This document shows positions 11,530 through 56,824 of a DNA stretch of 63,022 nt, in pieces. The stretch covers positions 1 to 63,022 of the forward strand of contig JBFLGF010000162.1 of the NCBI GenBank assembly GCA_050230475.1, written 5' to 3'. The translations under genes were made by a program, and so were the position numbers. Below the pieces are notes generated by a model, which saw nothing but the letters and a program-made list of their open reading frames with translations, was not told the origin of the DNA and searched no databases. This DNA comes from Ancylonema sp. (taxonomy: Eukaryota). How positions within the stretch are numbered: the stretch's first letter is position 1; every line of letters begins with the position of its first letter.

Positions 11530-14500
11530 TCATTGAATTGGAGCCACGTTGTAGTTCCCTCTTTCACTACTTCGTAAATATGGACTAAAGCTGGCACCGT
11601 ATCCTTGTGACGTATCCATACCGGGTCGATGCGAGGCAATCTATTATGATATAATTGCCTTAAAGATCAATGGTTACCATGCTCAAAGATGAAAACAATT
11701 GGGTCCGGATTAAACCCAACGGTTCGATAAGGAAGAAATGTCATACACCTCTTAAGATTCTCCCCAAGAATGACCAACGGGCGTCCGTAGAGGCCTGTTG
11801 AGAGAGCCGCCATGTCCGGAACACTAAACCAATTATGTGGAGGGGCTTCGCCGGCATCCTCGAAGTCAATGCCAGCAATCCTCCTGATGAAGCGGTCCTT
11901 CCCCCAAAAACTCTGAAGCAAAGCAAACCTAGATCGCAGATGACTGATGAGCTCCCTCTCAGAGTGAGACATTCGTTCTCATGTCCCTTCGTCGCCACCG
12001 CCAAAGCTCGGAACCCGCAATTACCATCTCCCTTCACTTCCGTAGCTGACCGCACCGATTGCAACCTCGGTAAAGATATCGGTGGATTAGCGGGGACCGT
12101 TGTGTGTGTGATCTGCAACCCCCCAAAAAAAGAAAAGGTAACTACATGTCACATAATTCCATTTCTTAAAATTTCAAGTATTTCCAAGGCGCGGCAAATA
12201 TTTTTGGTCAATTGCAATAACAAGAAGAAAGAATGAGCAAAACAAATGAGACGAAAGAAAAGTGAGAAAAACCGTTTCTTCATCTACTTACAATAGCGTC
12301 TTCATCATCATCATCAGTGGCCGGAACTTTCGGATTCATCTGCCGAAAATAAAAGGAAGAAGTTAATGGGAACGCAGAGGGGCACTCATCTCAGCCATCA
12401 CATCGAGACAACATGATGTATGAGTGTCATAGTAAAAAGACTCTACAATGTTTTCTTAGAAAGAATAAGTATTAAGAAAAAGTACAATGACAATATTATT
12501 TTGTTAAAAGAAACGGAGTTTCACCTCTTCTTCCTCCCCGATCGGGTCATCGTACATGTCTTCTTTGTCATGCTGCTCCTTGTTTTCGTGTTGTGGGACT
12601 TCCCCTCCCGATGAAAACTGTTAGGAAGGAGAATAACACAAATTTACAAGTGAAGTTGATATGGATTGACAAGGCAAGCCTAAAAAAAACTACGCCAGTA
12701 CAACGAAATAGACGAATAGACGAATGAACAACCCATTGTTGACGTTTTTGGGGTAGAGGAGCTTACCCATTCCGGACACTTATCACGTGTGTGACTAGTC
12801 TTCTTGTAAACAGAGTACCGACGTGGTTTAGGCGTGCGCTCGTAGAACTCGAAGGCAGAAGGTTCATATTTATTGGATGACGTCGGTTTCTCCGGAATGT
12901 TAGTAGAGCGTGGTGGACGGCCTTTAGGCTTGCTTGGGAGGGGTCTTTTGTACGAAGGATGTCGGTCGCAAAAATCTTGTTGATGCCCGAATCGACATAC
13001 TCTCGTTGACGTTCCCCCAAGGACGGGTACATCGCACCAAGCTTAGAGCGGTTTAGAAGGTGGTGAACGTGGTCGGGGGGAAGACCTAAGCGGTGTTGCA
13101 TGTAGTAAGTTGAATGCGTGAAAGTCACCAGTTACAAGGCCCCGCCCCTCTTGATCAATGCCCATGATCTCGTGACGACATGGAACGCCATATACCGGAC
13201 GCAACATGCATTCGCAAGGTGTATCATTGAGCCTCACGACACACTCCGCCTTCACCTGAAATATTGAGAAGGATTAATGAAGTTAAAATATCAAGGGGGG
13301 GGGGGGGAGGGACAACATAAAAGATAGGATGTACTTAGAATTCTAGGATCTTGTAGTACTCACCATGTTTAGTGCATGCGTCGAAATCTTGTTGACGACT
13401 TTGGAAAAGAAGGGGTCACTCAAGTGTTGAGGCCGGACCACGCTATCCTTGCTGATCTCCCGTGTCACATGAACGATACGTTTGTCCAACGCTCTACGCA
13501 TCTGGGAGATAGCTGGAAAAAGGTCAAGTTTTGTGCTCCTCAAATACCCCTTGATGTAAGCATTAATGCCTTCGACCCTGCTCATGGTTGCGGATCCCAA
13601 ATGAAAATGTTGGCAGGTGTACGCACGAACGATTTTGTCGGCATGTTTAAGCCATGTGGTGGACACGTAATCCACGGCCAAAGGGTGAGAGAGTCGGTAC
13701 TTGGCGGCCAAAATTTCCCATGACGCATGGAACTTAGCCACCGTGTTGGATGACATAGCATTTTCCCACTCCGGTGCGAGATCATTGAACAAATCGCCAC
13801 GAAACAGATGTTTTCGCTTGCGATACGCCAACACGTCCTTCCGAATGTGCCACGTACAAAAGAGCGAGGGTACCGAGGGAAACTCGCTCTCTAGTGCCCC
13901 CAAAATCCCCAACACACGGTCCACAGCAAACGCAATGGGGCGAAAACTTGCACCCATAGATTCCTTGAAATGTCGAAATAGCCCACTTGTAGTACTCCGT
14001 GGTCTCAAGGCTCAAGAAAACCTAAGGGGGTGGGACGGTGTAAGAAACAATACGAATTTGAATCAGTACATGTACAAGTGGTAGAAATATACATAGACAC
14101 ATACAAAAAAACATACATACAAACCCATAAGCATATGCAAACGTACATGGGTATTGATACTACGTTCACATTTCCTTCATTACTCAGTATTAGAAATTTC
14201 CATTACCTGGCCGGCGATGAAAGTGTGATTGCTCGGTGTGATGCCCACAATAAAAAATTGAAGGTGATTAACACATGCGATGCCCACATTGTAAGTTAGA
14301 AAAACCAGCCCTCTCAAAGTTGCTATTGTGAAGAGGATAAATTATTTTTTCGGTTGAGTCCATTACTTCTTTAACCTTTAGTAGCAAGAGTACTCACCGG
14401 TTCGTCTTGTACGTGCAATCCATGACAAAAACGTATTGATACTGAAGGGCCAAGTCGCGCGATGGCTTGTAAAAAAAGAAAAGCTTCGTGATGTTGCCTT

Positions 14501-17847: not shown

Positions 17848-20800
17848 CCCCCCCTCGAGACTTGTGAAAGTGAAATGTCACAAAGTCTAGACTCAAGAAA
17901 ACAGAATCTGAACTCAACTACAGGTTGAAAATCTGCAAAAGTAAACTTGTTCCCCCCCCCCAAAAGCTGCATCCCATGCCCCAACTTCACCTTACTAGTT
18001 CCCCCCCACTAATGATACGGGCAAGCCCAAGAGCCCAACGGGATATCTGGCAGGGGGGGTGTAAGACACCATATGTGGAACCCCTGCTGACAGCGATCAC
18101 ACAACACCATAGATTCCTCGCGTTCCCGATTACCATACTCGCGGCAGTAGGTATTGTCCCTACTGAAGTACCGCTCCGGGTAGATTTTCTTGTCAATGAC
18201 AGGTAGGCAGCAGGGGGGCATATTTTTAGCGTGCTCCTCTATGCGCGCACCATCCTGTCCTTGAAGCACCACCTCTCCACTGGCCTTCTTTCGCACCACT
18301 TGAAGGATGTGGGGGTCGGTGGGGACGTCGAAAGACGCCAGAGGTTTCCGTTTGACTAACACGAACTCTCCTGAAGCCACCTCTTCCTTGGCTCTGTCCC
18401 ATGGAGGACCACGGACTAAGCGAAAGTGCGTCTTGTCCGGGTGCTGGGCGATGGCGAGATTGCGCATGGCCAGGGGCACTTCTTGCTGGAAGATCTGCGC
18501 GCGTTCGTCGATGAAGAGACGCACGGCTTCGAGGTCATCTAGGCTGGGCATTGCTTGACCCTCCAGTGCTTGGATTCGGGAAGGGAAGATGGGGTGACGT
18601 CCGAAGAGGATGTAGTAGGGCGAGTAGCCCAGGGCTTTTTGCTGCGTCATCTTGTACCCCATAGCAACATAAGGAAACACAAGGTCCCAATCCGTGGCCG
18701 CACGCTCCAGTAGCGTCTTACGGAGGCCCTGCTTCATAGTTTGGACCATCCTTTCGGACAGCCCATCTGTCTGAGGGTGCCGACGAGAGGCCAGACGATG
18801 GTCAATCTTGAAGTGGGTTAGCACATCCTAAAACTCACCCGTGAACTATGAGCCCTGATTAGTTACTTCTTCAGCAGGAGCACCCATGCGAGTGAGAACA
18901 TACTCTACCAAAGCCCATGCAGTACCAGCAGCAGACTTATCAGGCAAAGGCACCAGTTCAACCCACTTTGTAAAATGCTCGATGAGGACCAACACATACT
19001 TCTACCTCGTTTGGTAACCGGAAAAGGACTACCGAAGTCAAAGCCCCACAGATACCCGAGGCCGCGAATAGGAAAGGGTTGCAGCTCCCGTTGAGGATCT
19101 CGAAAGGTGGCTTTGGCTCGGGCGCAAGAATTGCAGCTGCCGATTACGCCACGGACATCAGATTCCATGCCCTTCCACCAGTAGTTTTTCTACAAGAGAC
19201 CCTGCACACGGTTGACCCCAAAGTGTCCCATTTCCCGATGTACCCGCAAGATCAACTCTAAGCGTGCAAAAGGTACAGGGATGAGAAGCATGATACCACC
19301 CGGATACACCTTATCTACATTCCCCCCCAGCCACCGATATCCTAAAGCCCTTCTATACACTCTGTCGCGCTGTGGTGGATTATATTCCGGGGCATGGCGA
19401 TGATGTTTCAGGAACTCCAGAACAGGTGTGTCTGCCCAAATGTCACGAGTAGAGGCAGCGTCTGACGATGGGGAAACTGCAGCTGCGGGCACAGCTGTGG
19501 GGGAAACTGGGGAGAAAGAGACTGCAGGCAAGGGAGCTGTGGTGCTAGGAAGGGTTGTTGCATGAAACGCAAGGTAAGTAGCAGGGCCTAACACCAGCTC
19601 ATCCTGCACCTGTACATTAGCATAGCAAATAGTCCCCAATTCTTCTTTTTTCTCCCTAAACTCATCATGACTGGATGGCAATGGAAACCTGCTACAGCAA
19701 TCTGCAACAGCGTTGGCGACACTTGGGGTGTGCTTGATCTTGAAATCATATTCCTGTAGGATGAGGGACCACCGAGCTAACCTGCATGTAAGCCGGGAGG
19801 TGGTCATCATCCACTCCAGCAAAAGGAAGGGGGTGCCGATGAAGTAGTGGCGGAAGTGTTGAGCAGCGAGACTTTCTCCGTCGTACGCGCTCTACTTTCT
19901 TTCCACGTCATTGCAGCTGCGACTGGCCAAGGCCACCACTAAATCCTGACCCGCTTCATCATGTTGGCTGAGGACGGCGCCCACACCATCCTGGCTCCAG
20001 TCGGATTGTAGCTAGAAGGGCCGGGTGTAGTCAGGACGCCTCAAGACTAGTTCGGACCACAGCAATTGCTGAAGCTTCTGCATGGCTGCTTGCTCTTTCC
20101 CTCCCCATAGCAAGGGGGGATCCTTCTTGAGTAACTTGTTGAGAGGGGCTGCAATCGCCGAGAAGTGTGGAACGAACTTCCGGTAATAGGAGAACAACCG
20201 CAGCAATGCATGCAAGCTAGACAGGTATGTGGGAGTAACCATCTCCTGAATAGCTTTAGTCTTCTCCATTTGTGGGCGAATGCCGTAAGCATTGACCCGG
20301 TACCCTAAGAAATAAACTTCCTCAGCAGCAAACAAGCATTTTCCAGGGTGTACCTTTAACCCCCACTTCTCCAAGCGTGCAAACACTAGTTCCAAGTGTT
20401 TCAAATGTTCAGCAAACGAAGAACTCCAGATGATAATGTCGTCAATATAACAACGGGCAAATGGTAGCCCAACAAGAACCTGGTCCATGAGACGCTGAAA
20501 ATAGGGAGGGGCGTTCTTCAGCCCGAACGGTACGACGTTCCACTCCCACAGTTGCCGTCGATTGCCCCAAAAGGCGATTTTACCCTTGTCATGCTCCGCA
20601 ACTGGGATTTGGTGGTAACCAGACTTTAAGTCCAATTTGTTGAAGATGGTGGCGCCTTGGAGTTCTTGAAATATATCTTCAATAGAAAACAGGGGGTACC
20701 TATCTAGCTCATTGTAAAGGTTCACGGGACGATAGTCACCACATTGACGCAAGTCAGTATAAGCGCTTGACTTGTCCCGCTTCCTCCCCACCACAGTGGC

Positions 20801-21400
20801 AGAGGCATATTTGGACAGAGAAGATGGTATGATGAGCCCCTGCTTATACATTTTTTAGCAATTTTCCTCTACAAAGTCCCACTCTGTCTTCCCTAGTTTA
20901 TGAGCATGCGAGAAGATGGGTTTGTCAATGGTGAGAGGAATCTCCATGGCGGGTCAAGTAAACCCCCCCAAATCGGCAGTTGAATAGGCGAAGGCACTCT
21001 TATTCTTTTCCAAAAAGTTGGTTGAATCTTCTGTTTCTTCATTATTTAGGTTCCCCCCCAGTTTCCAGGCAGCATCCTCACCTGCAGCAGCCATGAGTGG
21101 CTGCTGGTCGTGAAGAAGTTCTTGGAGGGGCTCTCCTTTCTGCAGCTGTTGATGCTGCAACGTCCGGATCCAATTTTGTACGCACAGGTGGGCCTTGTGG
21201 AGGTGTAGGCGTTCCTCCATGTCGGTGCTATGATGCTGCAGCTCTCCTCCATCGTAGTAAAACTCTCGCTCGTCTGCGTTGTAGTGCAGCGCGAAAAACT
21301 CCACGGGTATGCGCAACGCAGTTTGTTCGTCCCGATCTTCTTCTTCCCCCTCCACTCCCAACTCCCCCCCCCTCAGAGCCTGCCGTGCAGACGTGAGACC
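17848..21400 (-). mobile_element. Degenerate Ty3/Gypsy pol (RT, RNase H, integrase) with C-terminal PHD finger
   Basis: RT motifs DYRPVN, KLDLKSGYHQI, VPFGLKNAP, YIDDIII; RNase H RLARWSLILQEYDFKIKH; integrase HREMGHFG, CNSC, HPQTDGLSERMVQT; PHD MVLCDRCQQGFHIWCLTPPLPDIPLGSWACP. Stops and frameshifts are present and the 5' limit is approximate. Confidence 0.92.
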
Positions 21401-28460: not shown

Positions 28461-28728
28461 TTTCCTTGCACTACTCTGCTCCACGAGTTCCTTTCTCCTC
28501 CGCAAGTTAGCGTCTGGCAACTTCAGCGGCATTCAGAAGCTTTTAGCACCCACTGTCCCTACTGATCAGAGTAGCTTCGCTGGGATAGAGCAGGCGAATA
28601 TTCTCGTTACATTTCTATGCTTGTCCAGTGAGAATTATGACTAGCAGCCGTTCTTTTTATCATCTCTCCAGTACCATAGACTGAAGAAAAAGTCGCTGGC
28701 TGGATGCGATCTGCATCAGGCGCTTCGT

Positions 28729-29637
28729 ATGCCTACTCCCCGAATTCTGTCGTCTCTGGATATTGCACAGAAATGTAGTCTTGGTTGTCACGTTCTCGAC
28801 CAATTGCTTGGCGGTGGGGTGCCCTGTCGCAGCATAACTGAATTTGCTGGCGAGAGTACTGCAGCAAAGACGCAGACGTGTCTGCAGCTTGCCTTGACAG
28901 CTCAGCTTCCTGTCTCAGCTGGAGGCCTTGGAGGTAGCTGCCTGTACGTCTACACTGAAGGGAGATTTCCTTTGGACAGACTTCAGGAGCTAGCGACTTT
29001 GCGATATCCGGAAAAGACTCCCGAGGGAAGTAGTCCTTGTGATAATGTTTTTATCACGCAAGTATATACACCGGACGAACTATTAAGCTTCCTCGAGTGG
29101 AGGCTCCCCCTGCAGCTCAAACAGCCATCCTCTAGGCCAATACGGCTGCTGATAATTGACTCAATTGCAGCACTCTTCCGAGGCGAGGTTGACTTCACTG
29201 TCACGGAACGAGCAGGTTTGCTCTTTTGCATCTCCAAACATCTGAAGCTGCTCGCAGACACGTATAACATAGGAGTCGTTGTGACCAACCAAGCTACGGA
29301 TGTAGTCAAAGATAATGGAAATGTCTCCCAGTCAGAGCTTGGCACTTCGGAGATGATATCTTCTGGCCGACAAGTGGTTGCTTCTTTGGGCCTGGCGTGG
29401 AGCAATTGCATCAGCTCGAGAATCTTCCTCACCAAAACCTCTGTTCGAGCGCGGGAACTATTGGAGCAGTATCCAGATGAAGAACAGTTAAAATTGGAAC
29501 GTGGCTGTAGAGAAATGAGAGTCGTCTTTGCTCCGCATCTGCCCCCTGACTCTTGTAAATATGTTGTTGAAGCAGCAGGAATCCGAGGGTTGAAAAAGAC
29601 CTTGGGTTGTGGTGTTACTATGCAGCTATGCACGTGA
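28729..29637 (+). CDS. XRCC3: DNA repair protein XRCC3 (RAD51 paralog), single coding exon, 302 aa
   Basis: QKCSLGCHVLDQLLGGGVPCRSITEFAGES, LQLALTAQLP, YTEGRFP, Walker B LLIIDSIAALFR, VVVTNQ, LGLAWSNCI, REMRVVFAPHLP: typical plant XRCC3 motifs. Confidence 0.92.
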   Translation: MPTPRILSSLDIAQKCSLGCHVLDQLLGGGVPCRSITEFAGESTAAKTQTCLQLALTAQLPVSAGGLGGSCLYVYTEGRFPLDRLQELATLRYPEKTPEGSSPCDNVFITQVYTPDELLSFLEWRLPLQLKQPSSRPIRLLIIDSIAALFRGEVDFTVTERAGLLFCISKHLKLLADTYNIGVVVTNQATDVVKDNGNVSQSELGTSEMISSGRQVVASLGLAWSNCISSRIFLTKTSVRARELLEQYPDEEQLKLERGCREMRVVFAPHLPPDSCKYVVEAAGIRGLKKTLGCGVTMQLCT

Positions 29638-30313: not shown

Positions 30314-36524
<6,211 letters not shown>

Positions 36525-37315: not shown

Positions 37316-38657
37316 ATGAAGATAAAAGTTCTGAGTATCCTTCCAATGTCCAACTGTAAAACATGAAGTCAGCTCCTTGTGTGTGATGGCCTGGTCATCA
37401 GTGATCTCTGAAATTCTTTATTGACTCCTCCTGCTCTGTCCGAATCAGTCGAGGCTCCTTTCTTTCAATATACTTCCAATACTTGTTTTAGAGAACTTTT
37501 TTTTTTTTTTTTTTTTTTTTGTGGTTTGATTTGAGATTACTACGCTGTCTTTAGAAGGAAGATTCGATGAGGCAGTGTGCCAATCTTCAGTACAAGCTCA
37601 TATGTTATGCACCTTGACTTGAAGCCTCGGACATTTTCGCATGGCGGGTATTCTATAGAGTAAGTACCTTCTTTGGTTACCTTCGTGACGCAATCGATTT
37701 TTTTCTTAATTGGTTGCTTGGATAATTTTGGGAGTCCACGTGAGTTTGAAAATCCACGTGTTGTCATCCGCTCAGTCATCTTCAGACACCAAATACATCT
37801 TCTTGCTCAGCCCTTCGAACAACAACACTTTCACAATAATCACCGAAATCCAAATGTAAGTACGTATCTTGGACTAATAGTAAACATTTATGGAGAATTT
37901 ATAGTGGCAACGAAGAGCGACAAGCTTATATTAAGAAAATCGACTTCTTGAAAGGACTTGAACACAATGTAAGGCAATTGTAGAGTCTTCATTTATAGCA
38001 AGTGTCTTTTTTGTATTTGGATTCATCTCAAATCAATGGAATATCTTCTTTGGAAGTAGATATAGTTAAATAAGGGCATTAACTATCCAACAACGGCGTT
38101 GATTTTCCATTCTATTTTGTTTGCTCCCAGCTGGCATGCTGTCGCTTCATGGACATGGGATGCCCCGGATGAGAATTGTGGCATCTGTCGTCAAGCCTTT
38201 GACGGGTGCTGTCCAGACTGTAAAGTCCCGGGCGATGACTGCCCTCTAAGTGAGTGGTCTCACCTGGTGCACATCATTTCCACGTTCATTATGTTCAGAT
38301 CATGTTCGGGTTGCCATCTCAAAGACCATGTTGCGTTTTCGTGACCCCATCAAGATGCATCGAAGTCCCCCGCAGTGACACGAAGATCACGTGGCTCATG
38401 TGAGGCATCAGCAAGTTCACTCATATTTATGTTAACAAGAGGTTATTTAAACGGGGTTCGAGTCTATACATAGTAATGGATATGTTCATTGCCCTTGTGC
38501 CCTTTCGTTGATGCTCATTGCCCTTGATGCTCTATGTGCAGTTTGGGGTGCTTGCAACCACGCATTCCATCTGCATTGCATTGTCAAATGGGTGAATTCA
38601 CAAAGTCCTACGCCGCAATGTCCCATATGTAGGCGTGATTGGAAGTATAGGGAATGA
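37316..38657 (+). CDS. APC11: Anaphase-promoting complex subunit 11 (RING-H2), 84 aa, 4 exons including a 1-nt exon
   Basis: Exons 37316-37334, 37659, 38131-38249 and 38542-38657 total 255 nt and encode MKIKVLNWHAVASWTWDAPDENCGICRQAFDGCCPDCKVPGDDCPLIWGACNHAFHLHCIVKWVNSQSPTPQCPICRRDWKYRE. Confidence 0.93.
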
Positions 38658-48584: not shown

Positions 48585-51500
48585 CTACCCTTCTACATCG
48601 CAGCCCCACTTACTTTCATTCCTAATCACGGTCAGCCCGTCCTCGGCATCACACACCTCATCGGATGTGAGCTGGATACCTGCCGTCGTGATCGCGTACG
48701 GAAAGGCCAGCGCAGCTGCCATAGGTGCTTTGGCAATCTTCAAGAACCGTTGACCTGGGAAAGAATCCGGAGACGTCAGAGCTGCTGCGCCCGCTGCTGA
48801 AGTTTTGTTGATGTGTACAAAACATATTTATTTTGATTCCTGAACTGTCATGTTACATTTAGGTGCCCTGATCCTCCAGTTCCACAAGGGCTAAAATGCT
48901 TCGATTTAAACTTCATCGCCAGGCTCAGATTGGTTATTGGCTATACAGAACTTTGCTATTGCATCTCCATTGCAAGAGCAAAGTCCTTTGTCCTTTCTAC
49001 GGCCAGGTGTGGTCAACATTTTTGCGGATCACACGAACCCCATCTCAAGCTGGTTCCAAGTCGCAATGCAAACCAGCAAAGGCATGTCGTCGATTACGCA
49101 GCCGCTATTACCTGCGACAATCTCCATTACAAGGCGTATATTCACACAATGCGCCCACTTCAATCCGAGAGCGGGTGTCAGGTAGGCCTCTGCGATTTCT
49201 GGCAAGTCCGCGTTATCTCTGACACCTTGGACTGCATCACCAGGGTGACTGGTGGCAGTCAGGGGGTCAATCGTTAGGGTAGGACAGCAACTACCAGATT
49301 CTAAAATCTCTACCACAAGGTTCCTTGGATCAAATGTCGACGCTCGAAGGTTTGAATTACCTCGCACCTTAACAGATAATTTCTCCTTGTTCTTTAGACA
49401 AGTGAGACAATCTGCCTCACCCGGTGGAACCAGTTGTCCAAATAAGGAATAAAATAAGTGAATTGTACAGAGGGGCAAATCTGAAATTTTGCCGGATTGT
49501 GTCCTACGACTGAGAATACATACCGAAATCATATGTGGGCTGCCCAGCAGGACCTCCGAAGCGCGTTGTCACTTGGTTGGTCACCACCACAGATACACGG
49601 AATTTGTCTGCCAAGTGCCTGAGAAAGATAAGAAGTCACAGGGTGGGGAAAGGATTTTTTTTTGTTTTTTTTTTTTTGGTGAGATGCTTTTGTTTTCTCG
49701 GATTTTATCGACCGGAACCACAAACAGCCGAACATCAGGTTATGGTTTCTTCAATAGGATTTTGACACGAGATTGCTTCATCCACCTTTGACCATGTCCA
49801 TTTCACGCTTGCAGTAATGAGCTTCCGAAGGGGGAAAACATGTAACCATGTAACATTGGCCAAAAATCATGCATAGACAGAAGCTTTACTTGAGAATTGT
49901 TGCTTGACGTCCAAGTAGCTCCTGGTTCTGGATCATTTTGTCCCCCACTGTTTCACTGCGTCTCACAAAAACCGTGAAATCGCTTCAACATGTATTCAAT
50001 ACCGATTTGCTCACTCTCAGGAAATCAAAACAACTTGACTCCAGGTTTTGCCCACTGTTGGCGATGATGCTTCACATGCAAGAATGACAGAAGCGTTTCT
50101 GAAGACATACAGGGCGAAGCAGAACATGTACCTCCGCAGCAGTGCAGCGATCGAGTCAACAACAACGAGTCGTACATGCTTTTCGATGATAGTCTCTTCT
50201 AGCGCACTTAGCCTAGCAGCACATGCGAAACAACTCCAGGTCTACATTCGTTCAACAAACAAGAGTTTAGTTCCAACACTTCTCCAGACTGCACTGGGAT
50301 GACAGAGTGTCGTTCTCCTTCAATGGATCACAATTCGTGTTCGAGGTGCTTGAGGTCAAATAAGAATGATGCAGCAGGTGACCACACCAGAACCAGATAA
50401 GGCAGAAGCGTGAGGAGAAGCTTACAACACGGGCCTTCCCACCCCACCTGTTCATGAGATCTGTGGCAGAATCCGGAGTGACCACAATCACTCGAGATGT
50501 CAACTGCAACATAGCCAGAAAGATACATACTTCACCCATTGAGACACCGTTCCGACCTCTTATAAATGGAAATACAGCATGCCACGATGCAGGACTAGCT
50601 GTTGCTGGATGTCAAGTTTATGAAACCCGCTTGTCGGGGTTGTCAATTTCTTTTACAGCACGGTGACTGTACTAGCCGCCAGATTATCTGCATCAAAACT
50701 CACATCCTGTATGATTGCCTCGTTGGCACTCTGGAACTGGTCGGGGTAACGTGTTTGCGCTATCTCGACAAATCTGCATTCGAAAGCAGCCCCAGCACTG
50801 GATATCAGTCTTATTTTTCGACCCCCTGAAATTGAAGAGAGAGCACTCGTGTGTTCTTTGACTGAAACGACATGACGTGGTGACCAGACAGGATTCAGAC
50901 TTTGTGCTGCCATGGAACTGGTCTTATGTGGTACCTGGAAGAACTGAACTTTCTTTCCGTGTCAAAGTATACCACTGTACCATCCAAGCCTCCATGAGTC
51001 TGTGGAAGTGTAGCACACAGGGACAGCATAAAACAGAACTGCAGCCACACAGATGGTCCAGACGGCAGCTCGTAAATGTCAACGGGGCAATCCTTAAACT
51101 TCGAAATCGACATAGTAATTCATTTTGTTGCTCATGGGCAGAGGAAGTGTGGAATGGGACATATGATGCCCTAATCATGGACACTCAGCGCCAAACACAC
51201 TCGGAACACAGTCCCCAAAAAGATAAGATTTTCCAACATTATCAAGTATGAGCACTTTATGTTGGTCAACATGAAGACAATTATCGACTTTGAAGGCTAA
51301 AAGTAAAAGCAACGATGGCGCTGCTTGTGTGATTGAAGTTGCACCAAGTAGGCATGTCACAGGTACTGAAGTTAAATCTTATGGAAAGAGATGCCTGCTC
51401 GGCAGGCTACCCTTCCCATGTTTCATACTTACTTGCGTTTTGCCGACTCCTGCTGCGCCCACGAGCTCTGTAATCGTGCCAAGTGGTAGTCCACCATAAA

Positions 51501-52227
51501 GAGCTTCATCCAGGGCATCAAGTTGTGTTTGAAGGTGATTAAGGTTCTCGCTCCTACCCACTCTTTCGTTTAAGAGCTCAAGCACCTGTAGTGAGTTTGA
51601 CATTTGGATAGGATGCCGAAGTGATAGATGCCAGCCCAGGATCTTCTCCATCAGCTCAAGGAACCACTCCAACCCCCGTGACATGCTGTAAATTCTTTGT
51701 TTGCAGTATACCAGGCATCAAGCTCAATAGGCATGGAACGACTCAGCACCAGAGACCATCTACACTCACTCTAATGGTGTGGAGACCACAGTCGTCCTCA
51801 ATTGTTTTTTGCCAGACGGTATTTTTCTGGTGGTCATTAATATGACCACCAGGCATCAAACTGGAAATAACTTTTTCAACGCTTACACTGGTGCATTTTG
51901 GGGCAAGTTGTCTGCTGATTGCATGCAGCGTCTCACGCAGATCATCTAGGTTGATATCCAGCAGTTCGATGAGCTCCAGTTCCGTTTTCCCGAGAACATC
52001 CTGATTCACAATTTCACCAGAGTCTGTGAGAATGAGGAAATGAAGGTGCATTTCGTATTCCGTCAACAGTTTAAACGGCAAGAGTTGCCTTGGCAAGGCT
52101 CCAGTGAAGCTGCAAATAGGTGAACTCGAAATGATCAGCTTGCCTTGGCGGTGTGCAGATTTCGTGCAGCTAATCTGTGGATAACAATCCCCTTCAGATC
52201 CATGTCGGACAGCATTTTGCAGGCCAT
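48585..52227 (-). CDS. RAD51B: DNA repair protein RAD51 homolog 2 (RAD51B), 11 exons
   Basis: Exons 52227-52144, 52000-51887, 51585-51433, 51038-50935, 50773-50704, 50503-50448, 50212-50132, 49955-49890, 49618-49524, about 49300-49112 and 48754-48585. Motifs AARNLHTAKDVL, Walker A GAAGVGKTQ, FDTERKFSSSR, Walker B VVVDSIAAL, VVTNQV, ALGLKWAHCVNIRL. The 3' end is less certain. Confidence 0.9.
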
Positions 52228-52611
52228 TAAGCTCTCCAGAAATCCCTGAATAATATCCCAAAATTTGGTTTCGATGGAAGGTCATCCTAAGCAGGAAGGT
52301 GACAGCTTTACATCCAAGGCTGTGGTGCTTATGCTTTCTCGCGTTTTCTTCGGAGATACTTTCGGATAGCAGGTTCCAGACAGCAGACGCTAAGGGCTAC
52401 AGCTGGATGTTCAGAACATGGCAATTTGCTACTCAGCTTCGCCTTCATAACATAAAGTCGCCAAGAAATGTGACATGGTGCGACTTCTCTGCAAAGCTTG
52501 GAATCGCCCCAGGTGACCGCAAGGGGGGGCCGCCCGCCGGGTCAACACCGCCCGCCGGTCCAAACGCAGCGAAAGGATAACGGAGAATAGTCAACGTCGT
52601 TTACTTTACAG

Positions 52612-53140: not shown

Positions 53141-56100
53141 TAGTGCTCCCTCGATATAACGACAGAAAAAATCCATAAAAGTGTCGTTACATCGAGGTGT
53201 ACACTGTATATTGACATTTACTACTAGAATCTGAAATCTATGTCGTTGTATCGAGGGACTTTGCGAATGAATCAAAGTGAATAAGCAAATGTGTATATTA
53301 TGTGTTTCCTAGAGTAAGTTGCCTTGGCATGATTATTAAATTCAGTGTGTGTATTGATATACGATCTATACAAGTGCGTCATGATAGTGAAGTTGTAGGC
53401 TGCCAGCGTCTCGGCCCACCGAGCGTGTCGACGAGAGGTAGTTCGAGCGGCCTCGAAGTATTCCAGGTTCTTATGGTCGGTGTAGACGACGATAGGGTGG
53501 GCCGCGCCCTCCAGGTAGACTCGCCACTCGGGTAGACTCGCCACTGGCGGAAGGCAGCCACGATGGCTAGCAGCTCCTTATCGTAGGGCCGGGTGGAACT
53601 TCTTGGAGTAGTACGCGATGGGGTAGAGCTCGCCACCTGGGTTTGGCTGCGACAGGACGCAGCCGAGGCCGAAGTCTGAGGCGTCTGCTTCGATGGTAAG
53701 TGGCTGCAGGGGTTGGAAGTGTTGCAGGACTGGGGCTGAGGTGAAGGCCAGCTTGAGGGATTGGAAATCCGCCTCCGCCTCACGCGTCCAGCCGAACTTT
53801 GCCCCCTTTCGGGTCAGGGAGGTAAGGGGGCACGCCACCGTAGAGTAACCATTGATGAAGCGTCTGTAGAAGTTAGCACAGCCGAGAAAGGACTGGACCT
53901 CCTTGACTGACTAGGGTGTTGGCCAGTCAAGAAGAGATGCCACCTTCTCGGGGTCCATACCCACGCCGGCTGGGGATACCCGGTAGCCTAGGAAGTCGAT
54001 AGTATTAGTGTGGAACTGGCATTTCTCTAGCTTAGCATGAAGCTTGTTCTCCCCTAGAAGTGCTAGGATAGCACGGACGTGGGGGACATGTTCTTCAAGG
54101 GAGGGGGAGTAGATGATCATGTCGTCGAGTAGACAGTAGACCCGCCAGGAAGACGTCTAGGTGTTCTCGAAACACATCGTCAATAAAAGACTGAAAAGCT
54201 ACTTGGTAGGCCCAAAAGGGCAGACCTGGTACTCATAGTGGCCGTAGCGGCAGCGAAAGGCAGTCTTGTACTCATCCCCCTCCTTGACCCGCAGCAGGTG
54301 ATAAGCATTGCGCAGGTCAATCTTGGTGAAGATTGTGGCGGTGTTCAGGCGGTCTAGCAGCTTAGATATGAGGGGTAAAGGGGCAACGGTTTTTGACTTT
54401 GACCGCGTTGAGGCCTCTGTATTCCACACAGAGCCGCAACTTGCCATCGGGCTTCTTAATGAACAACAGGTGCTCCTCCTGGGCTGGTTGAAGGCCTTAT
54501 GAACCCATTTGCGAGGTTGTCTGTTATGTAGGCTTTGAGGGTAACCAACTCCGGCTCCGAGAGGGAGTAGATCGGCCCCCAAGGTGGCTCTTTCCCGGGC
54601 AGGATGAGAATCTCGAGGTCATACGGGCGGTGGGGGGGAAGGGTGTTTGCAGCCTGCTCCGAGAACACATCTGCGAAGTCGTGGTACGCCGGGGGGAGCT
54701 TGGCGAGGATGGCTGGATGAGGGGGAGGGGGGAGGACAACGGCTAAAATTGATGGTTTTGGTAAGGGAAGGGGAGGGGAGGGGGAGGGGGGGGGAAGGCT
54801 AGAGACCAGGCAGTTTGTTGCACAAAGGATGCTGGTGAAGGACACCTGTTCCGCTTGCCAGTCGATCGTAGGGGTATATTTGTGGAGCCACGGAAAGCCC
54901 AGTAACACAGAGTAGTGGGCCAGACGGGTCACATCCAGGTGCAGGGTCTCGGTGTGGTCACCCGGGCATCTGACCTTGGCATCGTAGTAGCAAGTGATAG
55001 GGCTTGCTGCGGGTGGACTGCCATCTATCAGTTCGACTGGGATAGGTTGGGGGTGGGGTTGGGTGATCAGGGTATGGTTTGCGAGGAGGGAGGGGTCCAC
55101 AAAGTTTCCCGATGCCCCACAGTCGACGAGAGCGACGACGGTGATAGGGGGGAGGGGGTATCGGAGGAGTTGGATGGAAAAGGTGAGTGGGCGGGGAGTG
55201 GAATGGGGGGAGCGTGGGGAAAGGGAACCCAAACAGACCCCTCCTAGGAGTGAGTGGGGGAGTCGTTTTTTGGCTCCTCAGGGTGCAGATCCAAGAAGCG
55301 CACGGATCTAGACTTGCTTTTGTTGGGATAGTGCGCAAGCAAGTGGCCGGGCAGACCACAATAGTGGCACAGATTGCCCTCCTTGCGTCTAGCCGACTCT
55401 GTGGGCTGCAACTTGAGGACCTAGCGGCGGGTCCCACCCATCGATGTCCATGGCGACCACTTGAAGGTGAAGGGGGATCTGCTGAGGGGGGATCTGATCA
55501 GCAGCTCTGGCCTGGGGGGGGACGTAGGTTGAGCGGAATTGTCTAGGCGAGCAGGAGCTAGGGCGTTTTCTATGTTCTTCACAAAGGTAACATACTCGGA
55601 AAAGGTTTCAGGGGGTGTCTAAACCTTCAGGATCTCTTGCCGCAGCTCGGGTTTCAGCCTTTCAAAGTAAGTGAAGATCATAGGATGATCTCCCCACCCC
55701 TGAAACTGCCTGACTAAGGTTCTGAAGTTGGCGGTAAAGTCCTAAACTGCCCCTGTCTGCTTGAGTTCACGCAACTGGCGTTCCTTGGTCAGGTTGGAGG
55801 GGATGTCGCCAAAGGCCTCACTCAGACCTGCCAGGAGGTTGTCCACCGCATAGCCAGCGGGAAGGTTGCCTTCTAGATCATGCTGTTGAGTGAACCACTC
55901 GCCAGCAGCACCAGTTACGAAGGAGGAAAAGTAGAGGACCGTATGGTCACGATCGGAGAATCTGATAGGAGCCACTCGGGTCTGGCTGCGCACTAGCCGT
56001 AGGAAGGTAGCCAAACTTGCGAAATCGCTTGAATACTTGTGTAGATCAGGAAGGACCATTTTTAAAGGGGCTGGCCGGTAGGCTGATTGATAAACCGGGA

Positions 56101-56824
56101 CAGGTTGTGGGATAGGAGGGGGATGGGCTGAGATAGGAGATGGGGTGGTGAGGTGCACCTCCACCACCTTTTGTTTCTCATTAAGCTCATTGGATTGAGC
56201 AAATAAAGTTGTGATTTTTTCATCTATTTTGGCATGCCGTTCCATATTTTCACTCATTTGCAAACTCATGGCCTTCAAAGTCTCCATAATTTGTTGCATC
56301 TCCATGAGGAAATAATGTGAAACCCCCAAAAAAAACGGCGGCCAAAAAATGAGGTTTTTGCCTAAAGAATAAGTTGAAAAATCCCAATTGTGTTCCTATC
56401 AAGGGATAGTGTCAGGGATCGGCATCTCGGTATATATTGTATCTATGCTGTCCAAGTCCCATCTTGGACATTGTGCCTTTTATGACCCGGTTGTGAAGTC
56501 GTTGAAAGTACAGTCCGGCGACAGTCGTAACAATTAAGGTTGTTACAAAGCAACACCGGACACGCACATTCTATTGGACCTATATACAATTCTATACGAT
56601 CCGTTCTAGATTTAACTCGATTTCCATACACCCTTATCTGCGAGCAATAGCGTTATATACACAGTATAACGACATTAAGTAACAAAATTCTGAATTCTGA
56701 TTCTGATTTTGTCATTCTATAGAGTGTCGTTATGCTTATATCGAGGGCGATTTCATATTGATTTTAAAAAAGTTCCCAAAAACTGTCGTTATACCGAGGT
56801 TGTCGTTATATCGAGAGAGCACTG
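53141..56824 (-). mobile_element. Family F MITE (reverse orientation) split by a truncated Gypsy element
   Basis: 53141-53386 and 56533-56824 match the two arms of 7721-8341. Confidence 0.85.
53387..56532 (-). mobile_element. 3'-truncated Ty3/Gypsy (chromovirus/Tcn1-like): short 5' LTR, gag, zinc knuckle, protease, RT, RNase H; integrase and 3' LTR missing
   Basis: LTR-like tgtcag...gtaaca at 56410-56532; gag SFVTGAAGEWF, LRELKQTG, PMDID; knuckle CHYCGLPGH; protease [36 protein letters not shown]; RNase H EADASDFG, YDKELLAIV, YTDHKNL. Multiple frameshifts. Confidence 0.9.

Follow-up and report, generated by a model that had tools for sequence, protein, structure and literature searches.

A predicted single-nucleotide exon in APC11 of a likely zygnematophyte alga, with a U12-like upstream intron and animal-type counterparts

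The APC11 gene in the DNA analysed here, a stretch of 63,022 nucleotides referred to below as the window, very likely carries a constitutive exon of one nucleotide (A37659), preceded by an intron with signals of the minor (U12) class, and the same layout of a 19-nt first exon followed by a single base is found in animal-type loci. The exon itself is already known and its streptophyte age has already been predicted. The U12-like upstream intron and the animal-type counterparts are new relative to the literature searched, although large supplements or intron databases beyond that literature could already hold either. We consider it probable that the explanation as a whole is correct, namely that a constitutive one-base exon was inherited from the ancestry shared by plants and animals and that its upstream intron would be removed by the minor spliceosome after intron 2 has gone.

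The gene and its predicted splicing signals are set out in Table 1. A first-pass annotation had read the gene as needing one extra base in mid-intron, and its coordinates and phases for the APC11 exons all hold, as does its statement that exon 1 joined directly to exon 3 shifts the frame. With A37659 omitted the frame closes after 45 aa, and with it included the coding exons (19 + 1 + 119 + 116 = 255 nt) encode an APC11 of 84 aa in which codon 7 is A+A+C (Asn). The base lies between AG (37657-37658) and GTAAGT (37660-37665), and exon 3 starts at C38131 with CAG before it and the Trp codon one base after. Both large exons score over the cut-off for PF12861 (zf-ANAPC11), and E values of 3e-19 against the APC11 chain 5g04_B and 4e-5 against RBX1 place the protein, with its domain and its 84 aa, nearer to APC11. 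Exon 3 matches residues 8-46 of 5g04_B, a solved 84-aa APC11 chain that we take to be the human one, so that seven residues must precede the Trp.

Table 1. Coordinates of the APC11 gene and its predicted splicing signals within the window.
Feature	Position	Strand	Remarks
APC11 coding exon 1, 19 nt, phase-1 end	37316..37334	+	ATG at 37316; GT directly after 37334
Intron 1, 324 nt, GT-AG, predicted U12-type (minor)	37335..37658	+	
Predicted U12-type 5' splice site GTATCCTT	37335..37342	+	consensus as given in PMC2831892
U12-like branch site ACCTTGAC	37611..37618	+	putative branch A 37617, 41 nt before the microexon
Predicted single-nucleotide exon (A), middle base of codon 7	37659..37659	+	homologous base in other organisms' spliced contigs
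Intron 2, 471 nt, U2-type donor GTAAGT, CAG acceptor rich in pyrimidines	37660..38130	+	
Exon 3, 119 nt, last base of codon 7 into RING-H2 domain	38131..38249	+	PF12861
Intron 3, 292 nt	38250..38541	+	position shared with plant-type and animal-type loci and with L061
Exon 4, coding part, 116 nt including stop codon	38542..38657	+	PF12861

How far such a site might arise by chance was assessed by shuffling the 796-nt span 5000 times at the dinucleotide level, with 40 nt trimmed at each end. Bare AG-N-GT is common, with four cases in the span and at least one in 4589 of the shuffles. YAG-N-GTAAGT is uncommon, occurring once in the span and in 26/5000 shuffles, and when a U12-like branch site is also required 35-50 nt upstream, a pattern fixed post hoc, the number falls to 3/5000. 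Three further AG-N-GT sites, which the first-pass annotation did not mention, would also give 84 aa (37576, 37984 and 38003), and they are followed by GTGCCA, GTCTTC and GTCTTT respectively, leaving 37659 as the only one of the four one-base candidates with a consensus donor.

When ways to restore the frame were enumerated, two exons could be joined in frame in three ways, an internal exon kept the frame in 34 cases, and 18 alternatives were available for the first exon. These include a donor at 37348 (88 aa) and longer internal exons at 37572-37659 or 37786-37855, and in moss an isoform is described in which a longer exon ends with the base (PMC8831610). That one of these is the true route is nevertheless very improbable. 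The joins and the internal exons of more than one base extend the N-terminus ahead of the Trp, the alternative first exons alter it, and the donors for direct joining are GTTCTG and GTCCAA, whereas a Trp at residue 8 is fixed by homologues. Among the joins and internal exons, 84 aa are kept only by the four one-base options; that a one-base insert alone retains both this length and the Trp at residue 8, in agreement with 5g04_B and with contiguous homologues, supports the one-base exon. Alternative splice forms are possible as minor isoforms. From the signals, the phases and the conservation described below, splicing of the one-base exon in the organism of the window is highly probable.

A metagenome scan provided the comparative material, in which 80 of 143 related stretches were examined and all 80 classified, with lineage labels that rest on sequence likeness only. 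Plant-type loci number 45, of which 28 hold exon 1 together with the intron span, seven are without exon 1 (absent either from the contig or from the parse) and ten are contiguous. All 28 loci with the span have the 19-nt exon, a donor that reads GTATCC and, one base ahead of the Trp, an acceptor. The 19-nt exon 1 is also present in 14 animal-type loci and in L061, a locus from an unplaced eukaryote. A spliced moss-type contig (L038) matches its genomic counterpart L027 in five blocks at 95-99% and has, where exon 1 meets exon 3, exactly one additional A. An assembly error, by which a base was lost where exon 1 ends or exon 3 starts, might be suspected from the long homopolymers nearby, such as the poly-T near 37497-37521; this tract lies within intron 1, however, and its length is therefore without effect on phase. 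The same one-base mismatch recurs in separate assemblies, in 28 plant-type loci, three animal-type loci and L061, which excludes a slip in the window as its source and makes this explanation extremely improbable.

Some plant-type loci show variations on the site. The single base is preceded by AAG instead of YAG in L004, L009, L010 and L066, and at L012:133 the candidate base is a G, a U12-like branch site lying at a similar distance upstream. In some plant copies of APC11 exon 3 is broken by an in-frame stop or a frameshift (L060:4001-4114, L062, L066 and L068), and these copies nonetheless retain the GTATCC donor and a microexon candidate.

The precedent in Arabidopsis APC11, which the first-pass annotation had cited, is confirmed by Guo and Liu (2015), where exon A333 was demonstrated by substitution and deletion (PMC4674806). 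The two systems are alike in the gene, in an A required by the frame and in an 84-aa product, and stepwise splicing was proposed there (PMC4674806). A putative branch A lies about 44 nt upstream in Arabidopsis, with its class unnamed, and 41 nt upstream in the window (PMC4674806). They differ in that the Arabidopsis exon was tested by mutagenesis, whereas that of the window is predicted and its host is likely an alga. The abstract, Results, Discussion and Methods of that paper make no mention of U12 splicing or of cases outside plants, and how the spliceosome copes with an exon of one base was left open (PMC4674806).

Yu et al. (2022) traced the exon through land plants, including a moss and a lycophyte, with loss in most monocots (PMC8831610). 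Their plant microexon cluster 1, zf-ANAPC11 (also in MEPDB, PMC12409088), is the same one-nucleotide exon, flanked by two introns in the majority of land plants and missed by annotation, and A37659 agrees with it as one frame-required base that stands at coding position 20 with an intron on either side. The survey of this cluster covers plants only (PMC8831610, PMC12409088), and the term U12 appears 0 times in the main text and six supplements of PMC8831610, the largest supplementary PDF aside. The expectation that automated annotation would miss the exon is likewise upheld, both by PMC8831610 and by public APC11 models, among which the normal seven residues precede the Trp in 14 of the 120 matches listed for a query that favoured mis-built models; many public APC11 models carry wrong N-termini. 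Feng et al. (2024) scored cluster 1 as present in two strains of Zygnema circumcarinatum and in Mesostigma, and as 0 in Chara and Klebsormidium (Fig. 6a source table, PMC11096116). Their Zygnema survey covers the likely lineage of the window, where cluster 1 stands as prediction only (PMC11096116). A one-nucleotide exon in CYP621A of Fusarium is comparable in that a phase 1 to 2 gap is closed by one base, found by way of intronless copies, and differs in belonging to an unrelated gene and to one fungal group only (PMC12940212).

The earlier reading was right on the exon and overlooked the signals in intron 1. U12-type GT-AG introns have a donor RTATCCTT and a branch site like TCCTTAAC, and are without a pyrimidine tract (PMC2831892, PMC3584512). 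In the window GTATCCTT at 37335 conforms to this donor, and exact matches to GTATCCTT number only two over both strands of the window; the second is at 11599. The donor begins GTATCC in the window and in 28/28 plant-type loci with exon 1, and the moss-type donor deviates at +7/+8 (GTATCCAA). Near the 3' end of the intron, ACCTTGAC at 37611 is close to the branch-site consensus, the sole AG between branch A 37617 and the microexon lies 6 nt after that A, and no clear pyrimidine tract precedes the acceptor.

The branch site was surveyed with the microexon picked blind, by donor match alone, and YCTTRAY was found 38-48 nt upstream of it in 13 of the 14 plant-type loci taken as representatives, one of which is the window; L010 was the locus missed under the blind pick. 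The 14 loci are related rather than independent, and the 35-50 nt test interval was chosen post hoc. The control before the intron-2 acceptor gave 0/14, and the expectation from shuffles was 0.19. A second branch-like site, at 16 nt, was seen in the moss-type locus only. The spacing departs from typical U12 GT-AG introns, in which the branch site lies about 11-13 nt from the acceptor, their optimum (PMC2831892, PMC3584512); here it is 41 nt in the window and 38-48 nt across loci, and the next exon is a single base. As it lies so far from the optimum, intron 1 is labelled U12-like and not a typical member of the class.

Could the major spliceosome handle intron 1 of a real one-nucleotide exon, with GTATCC and CTTGAC being relics, or else a U2 donor and branch point that have been conserved? 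The distance of the branch site from the U12 optimum would fit this, YTTRAY suits a U2 branch point too, and animal-type loci cope with U2-type donors. Against this stand the C residues at +5/+6 in the window and in 28/28 plant loci, which are U12 consensus, the lack of the G by which U2 donors are marked at +5 (PMC2831892), and a window acceptor without a clear pyrimidine tract, so that we judge it improbable. Removal of intron 1 would instead probably depend on the minor spliceosome, as the donor and branch-site sequences suggest. Whether the set-back branch point leaves room for U1 on the donor one base beyond the acceptor is a question on which we would put the chances at about even. A hairpin drawing the branch site toward the acceptor was considered and found unsupported, since 37605-37680 folds without special structure (z 1.40), and an Rfam search of the window gave no match. 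No precedent for a U12 intron in APC11 was met in the literature searched, which consisted mostly of open papers and had intron databases outside its scope, and one supplement of PMC11347168 lacks an entry for APC11. The U12-like upstream intron and its conserved far branch point provide specific bases and mutants with which the handling of a one-base exon can be tested.

The layout also occurs outside plants, a point that the first-pass annotation had missed. The 31 loci that we call animal-type are so named for their likeness to the 84-aa chain 5g04_B and for a tree grouping without starred support. Three have the 19+1 layout, nine are partial, ten have the first intron only, six are contiguous and three are special (L063, L065 and L080). 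In the three with the layout (L049, L039 and L040) exon 1 is on the contig, the phase mismatch is the same, and there is one YAG-N-GTRAG site each, a pattern arising in 49, 84 and 539 of 5000 shuffles respectively; the site in L040 taken alone is weak. The nine partial loci have an acceptor one base ahead of the Trp, exon 1 not being found, and one of them (L024) has a candidate site. L061 has the 19+1 layout with introns of 68 and 105 nt and a YAG-N-GT site. The other loci that are neither plant-type nor animal-type are three in number and contiguous.

Intron 1 in L049, L039, L040 and L061 has ordinary donors and no U12-like branch site at the plant distance. Since these four non-plant loci do without U12 signals, U12 splicing is not required for the exon, and minor splicing would be a feature of its plant form.

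An order for the two splicing events is suggested by contig L065, which matches L049 at 96-100% and is without seven GT-AG introns on two strands, two of APC11 and five of a convergent gene. It keeps intron 1, and in it the single A meets exon 3 precisely where the donor was predicted; the best reading of L065 is that of a transcript spliced in part. In L049:3815-6781 and L065:237-2402 the 3' region of APC11 overlaps the convergent spliced gene, which has a weak Atlas likeness to UBAP2. In L080 introns 1 and 3 are present and intron 2 is absent, and this contig may come from an RNA intermediate or from a genome that lost intron 2, an ambiguity for which it was left out of the supporting count. 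L058 has the intron 2 side, has lost intron 3 and is without exon 1, and is for that reason silent on the order of introns 1 and 2.

In the mechanism that we propose, the major spliceosome would take out intron 2 first through the strong donor directly after the A, which would then become the first nucleotide of a 120-nt exon. Intron 1 would follow, in plants likely by way of the minor spliceosome with the branch point about 41 nt upstream in the window, using as acceptor the first suitable AG past the branch point. Being set back, this branch point would give U1 and the branch-site complex room on either side of the base, and with intron 2 already gone two spliceosomes would never act on the single base at once. 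Removal of intron 2 before intron 1 is somewhat favoured, on the strength of one clear contig (L065), which is animal-type and has an intron 1 that is not U12-like, together with the Arabidopsis stepwise model. Skipping of the exon would shift the frame of a core cell-cycle gene, and the signals would on that account be kept under selection.

The first-pass annotation had supposed that the exon may be very ancient; its antiquity within streptophytes is not a new point, the exon being already scored in Zygnema and Mesostigma (PMC11096116). The 19+1 layout likely goes back to the ancestor that plants and animals share. We lean, with modest preference, toward a fuller account in which the exon is a relic of that ancestor more than 1 billion years old, intron 1 was of the minor class with its branch point set back by about 40 nt, plants kept this state, intron 1 became major-type in animals, and animals too would carry a constitutive one-base nuclear exon. 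Separate origin in plants and animals, whether introns were gained independently or slid at neighbouring bases, is less probable but deserves consideration: the class of intron 1 differs between the two, the exon base is A in plants and A or G in animal-type loci, and one or both introns are absent from many lineages, as seen in the ten animal-type loci with the first intron only, the six contiguous ones and the three other contiguous loci. Introns 1, 2 and 3 nevertheless occupy the same positions whether the locus is plant-type, animal-type or L061. U12-type introns keep their positions over deep time and undergo conversion to U2 type (PMC2831892, PMC3584512), a change documented as commonest for GT-AG introns (PMC2831892).

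Should common ancestry be correct, the exon would be among the oldest microexons known. Feng et al. frame microexons as arising with life on land (PMC11096116), and an animal counterpart would contradict this for the APC11 exon. No report of the APC11 one-base exon outside plants was met in the literature searched (mostly open papers, with intron databases and the large supplements of PMC8831610 and PMC11096116 outside its scope).

The host of the window is likely a zygnematophyte alga, in keeping with the earlier guess of a distant streptophyte, which was made from the letters alone. In a quick Cpn60 tree of one gene and 48 rows the window falls outside a 32-row land-plant clade (SH-aLRT 94), without starred support, and within a group of 10 rows (90) that has Closterium and Netrium as its named members; Spirogloea and Mesotaenium fall at the base without resolution. 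The host is graded as likely and no higher because the tree is of one gene and lacks starred support.

The gene used for this tree, plastid Cpn60-beta (30720-36524, minus strand), lies head to head with APC11 (37316, plus strand), the likely start codons being about 790 nt apart, and its introns contain simple repeats and long runs of G/C. At 28645-29637 (plus strand) lies an XRCC3-like frame of 330 aa without interruption, for which the 120 matches listed include no close relative, the best identity being 38-47%, and which did not help to place the host. A second, spliced gene of the RAD51 family is found at about 51380-52400 (minus strand). Broken frames at about 11700-14000, 18000-21400 and 53400-56400 appear by eye to be one DNA transposase-like and two LTR retroelement-like sequences.
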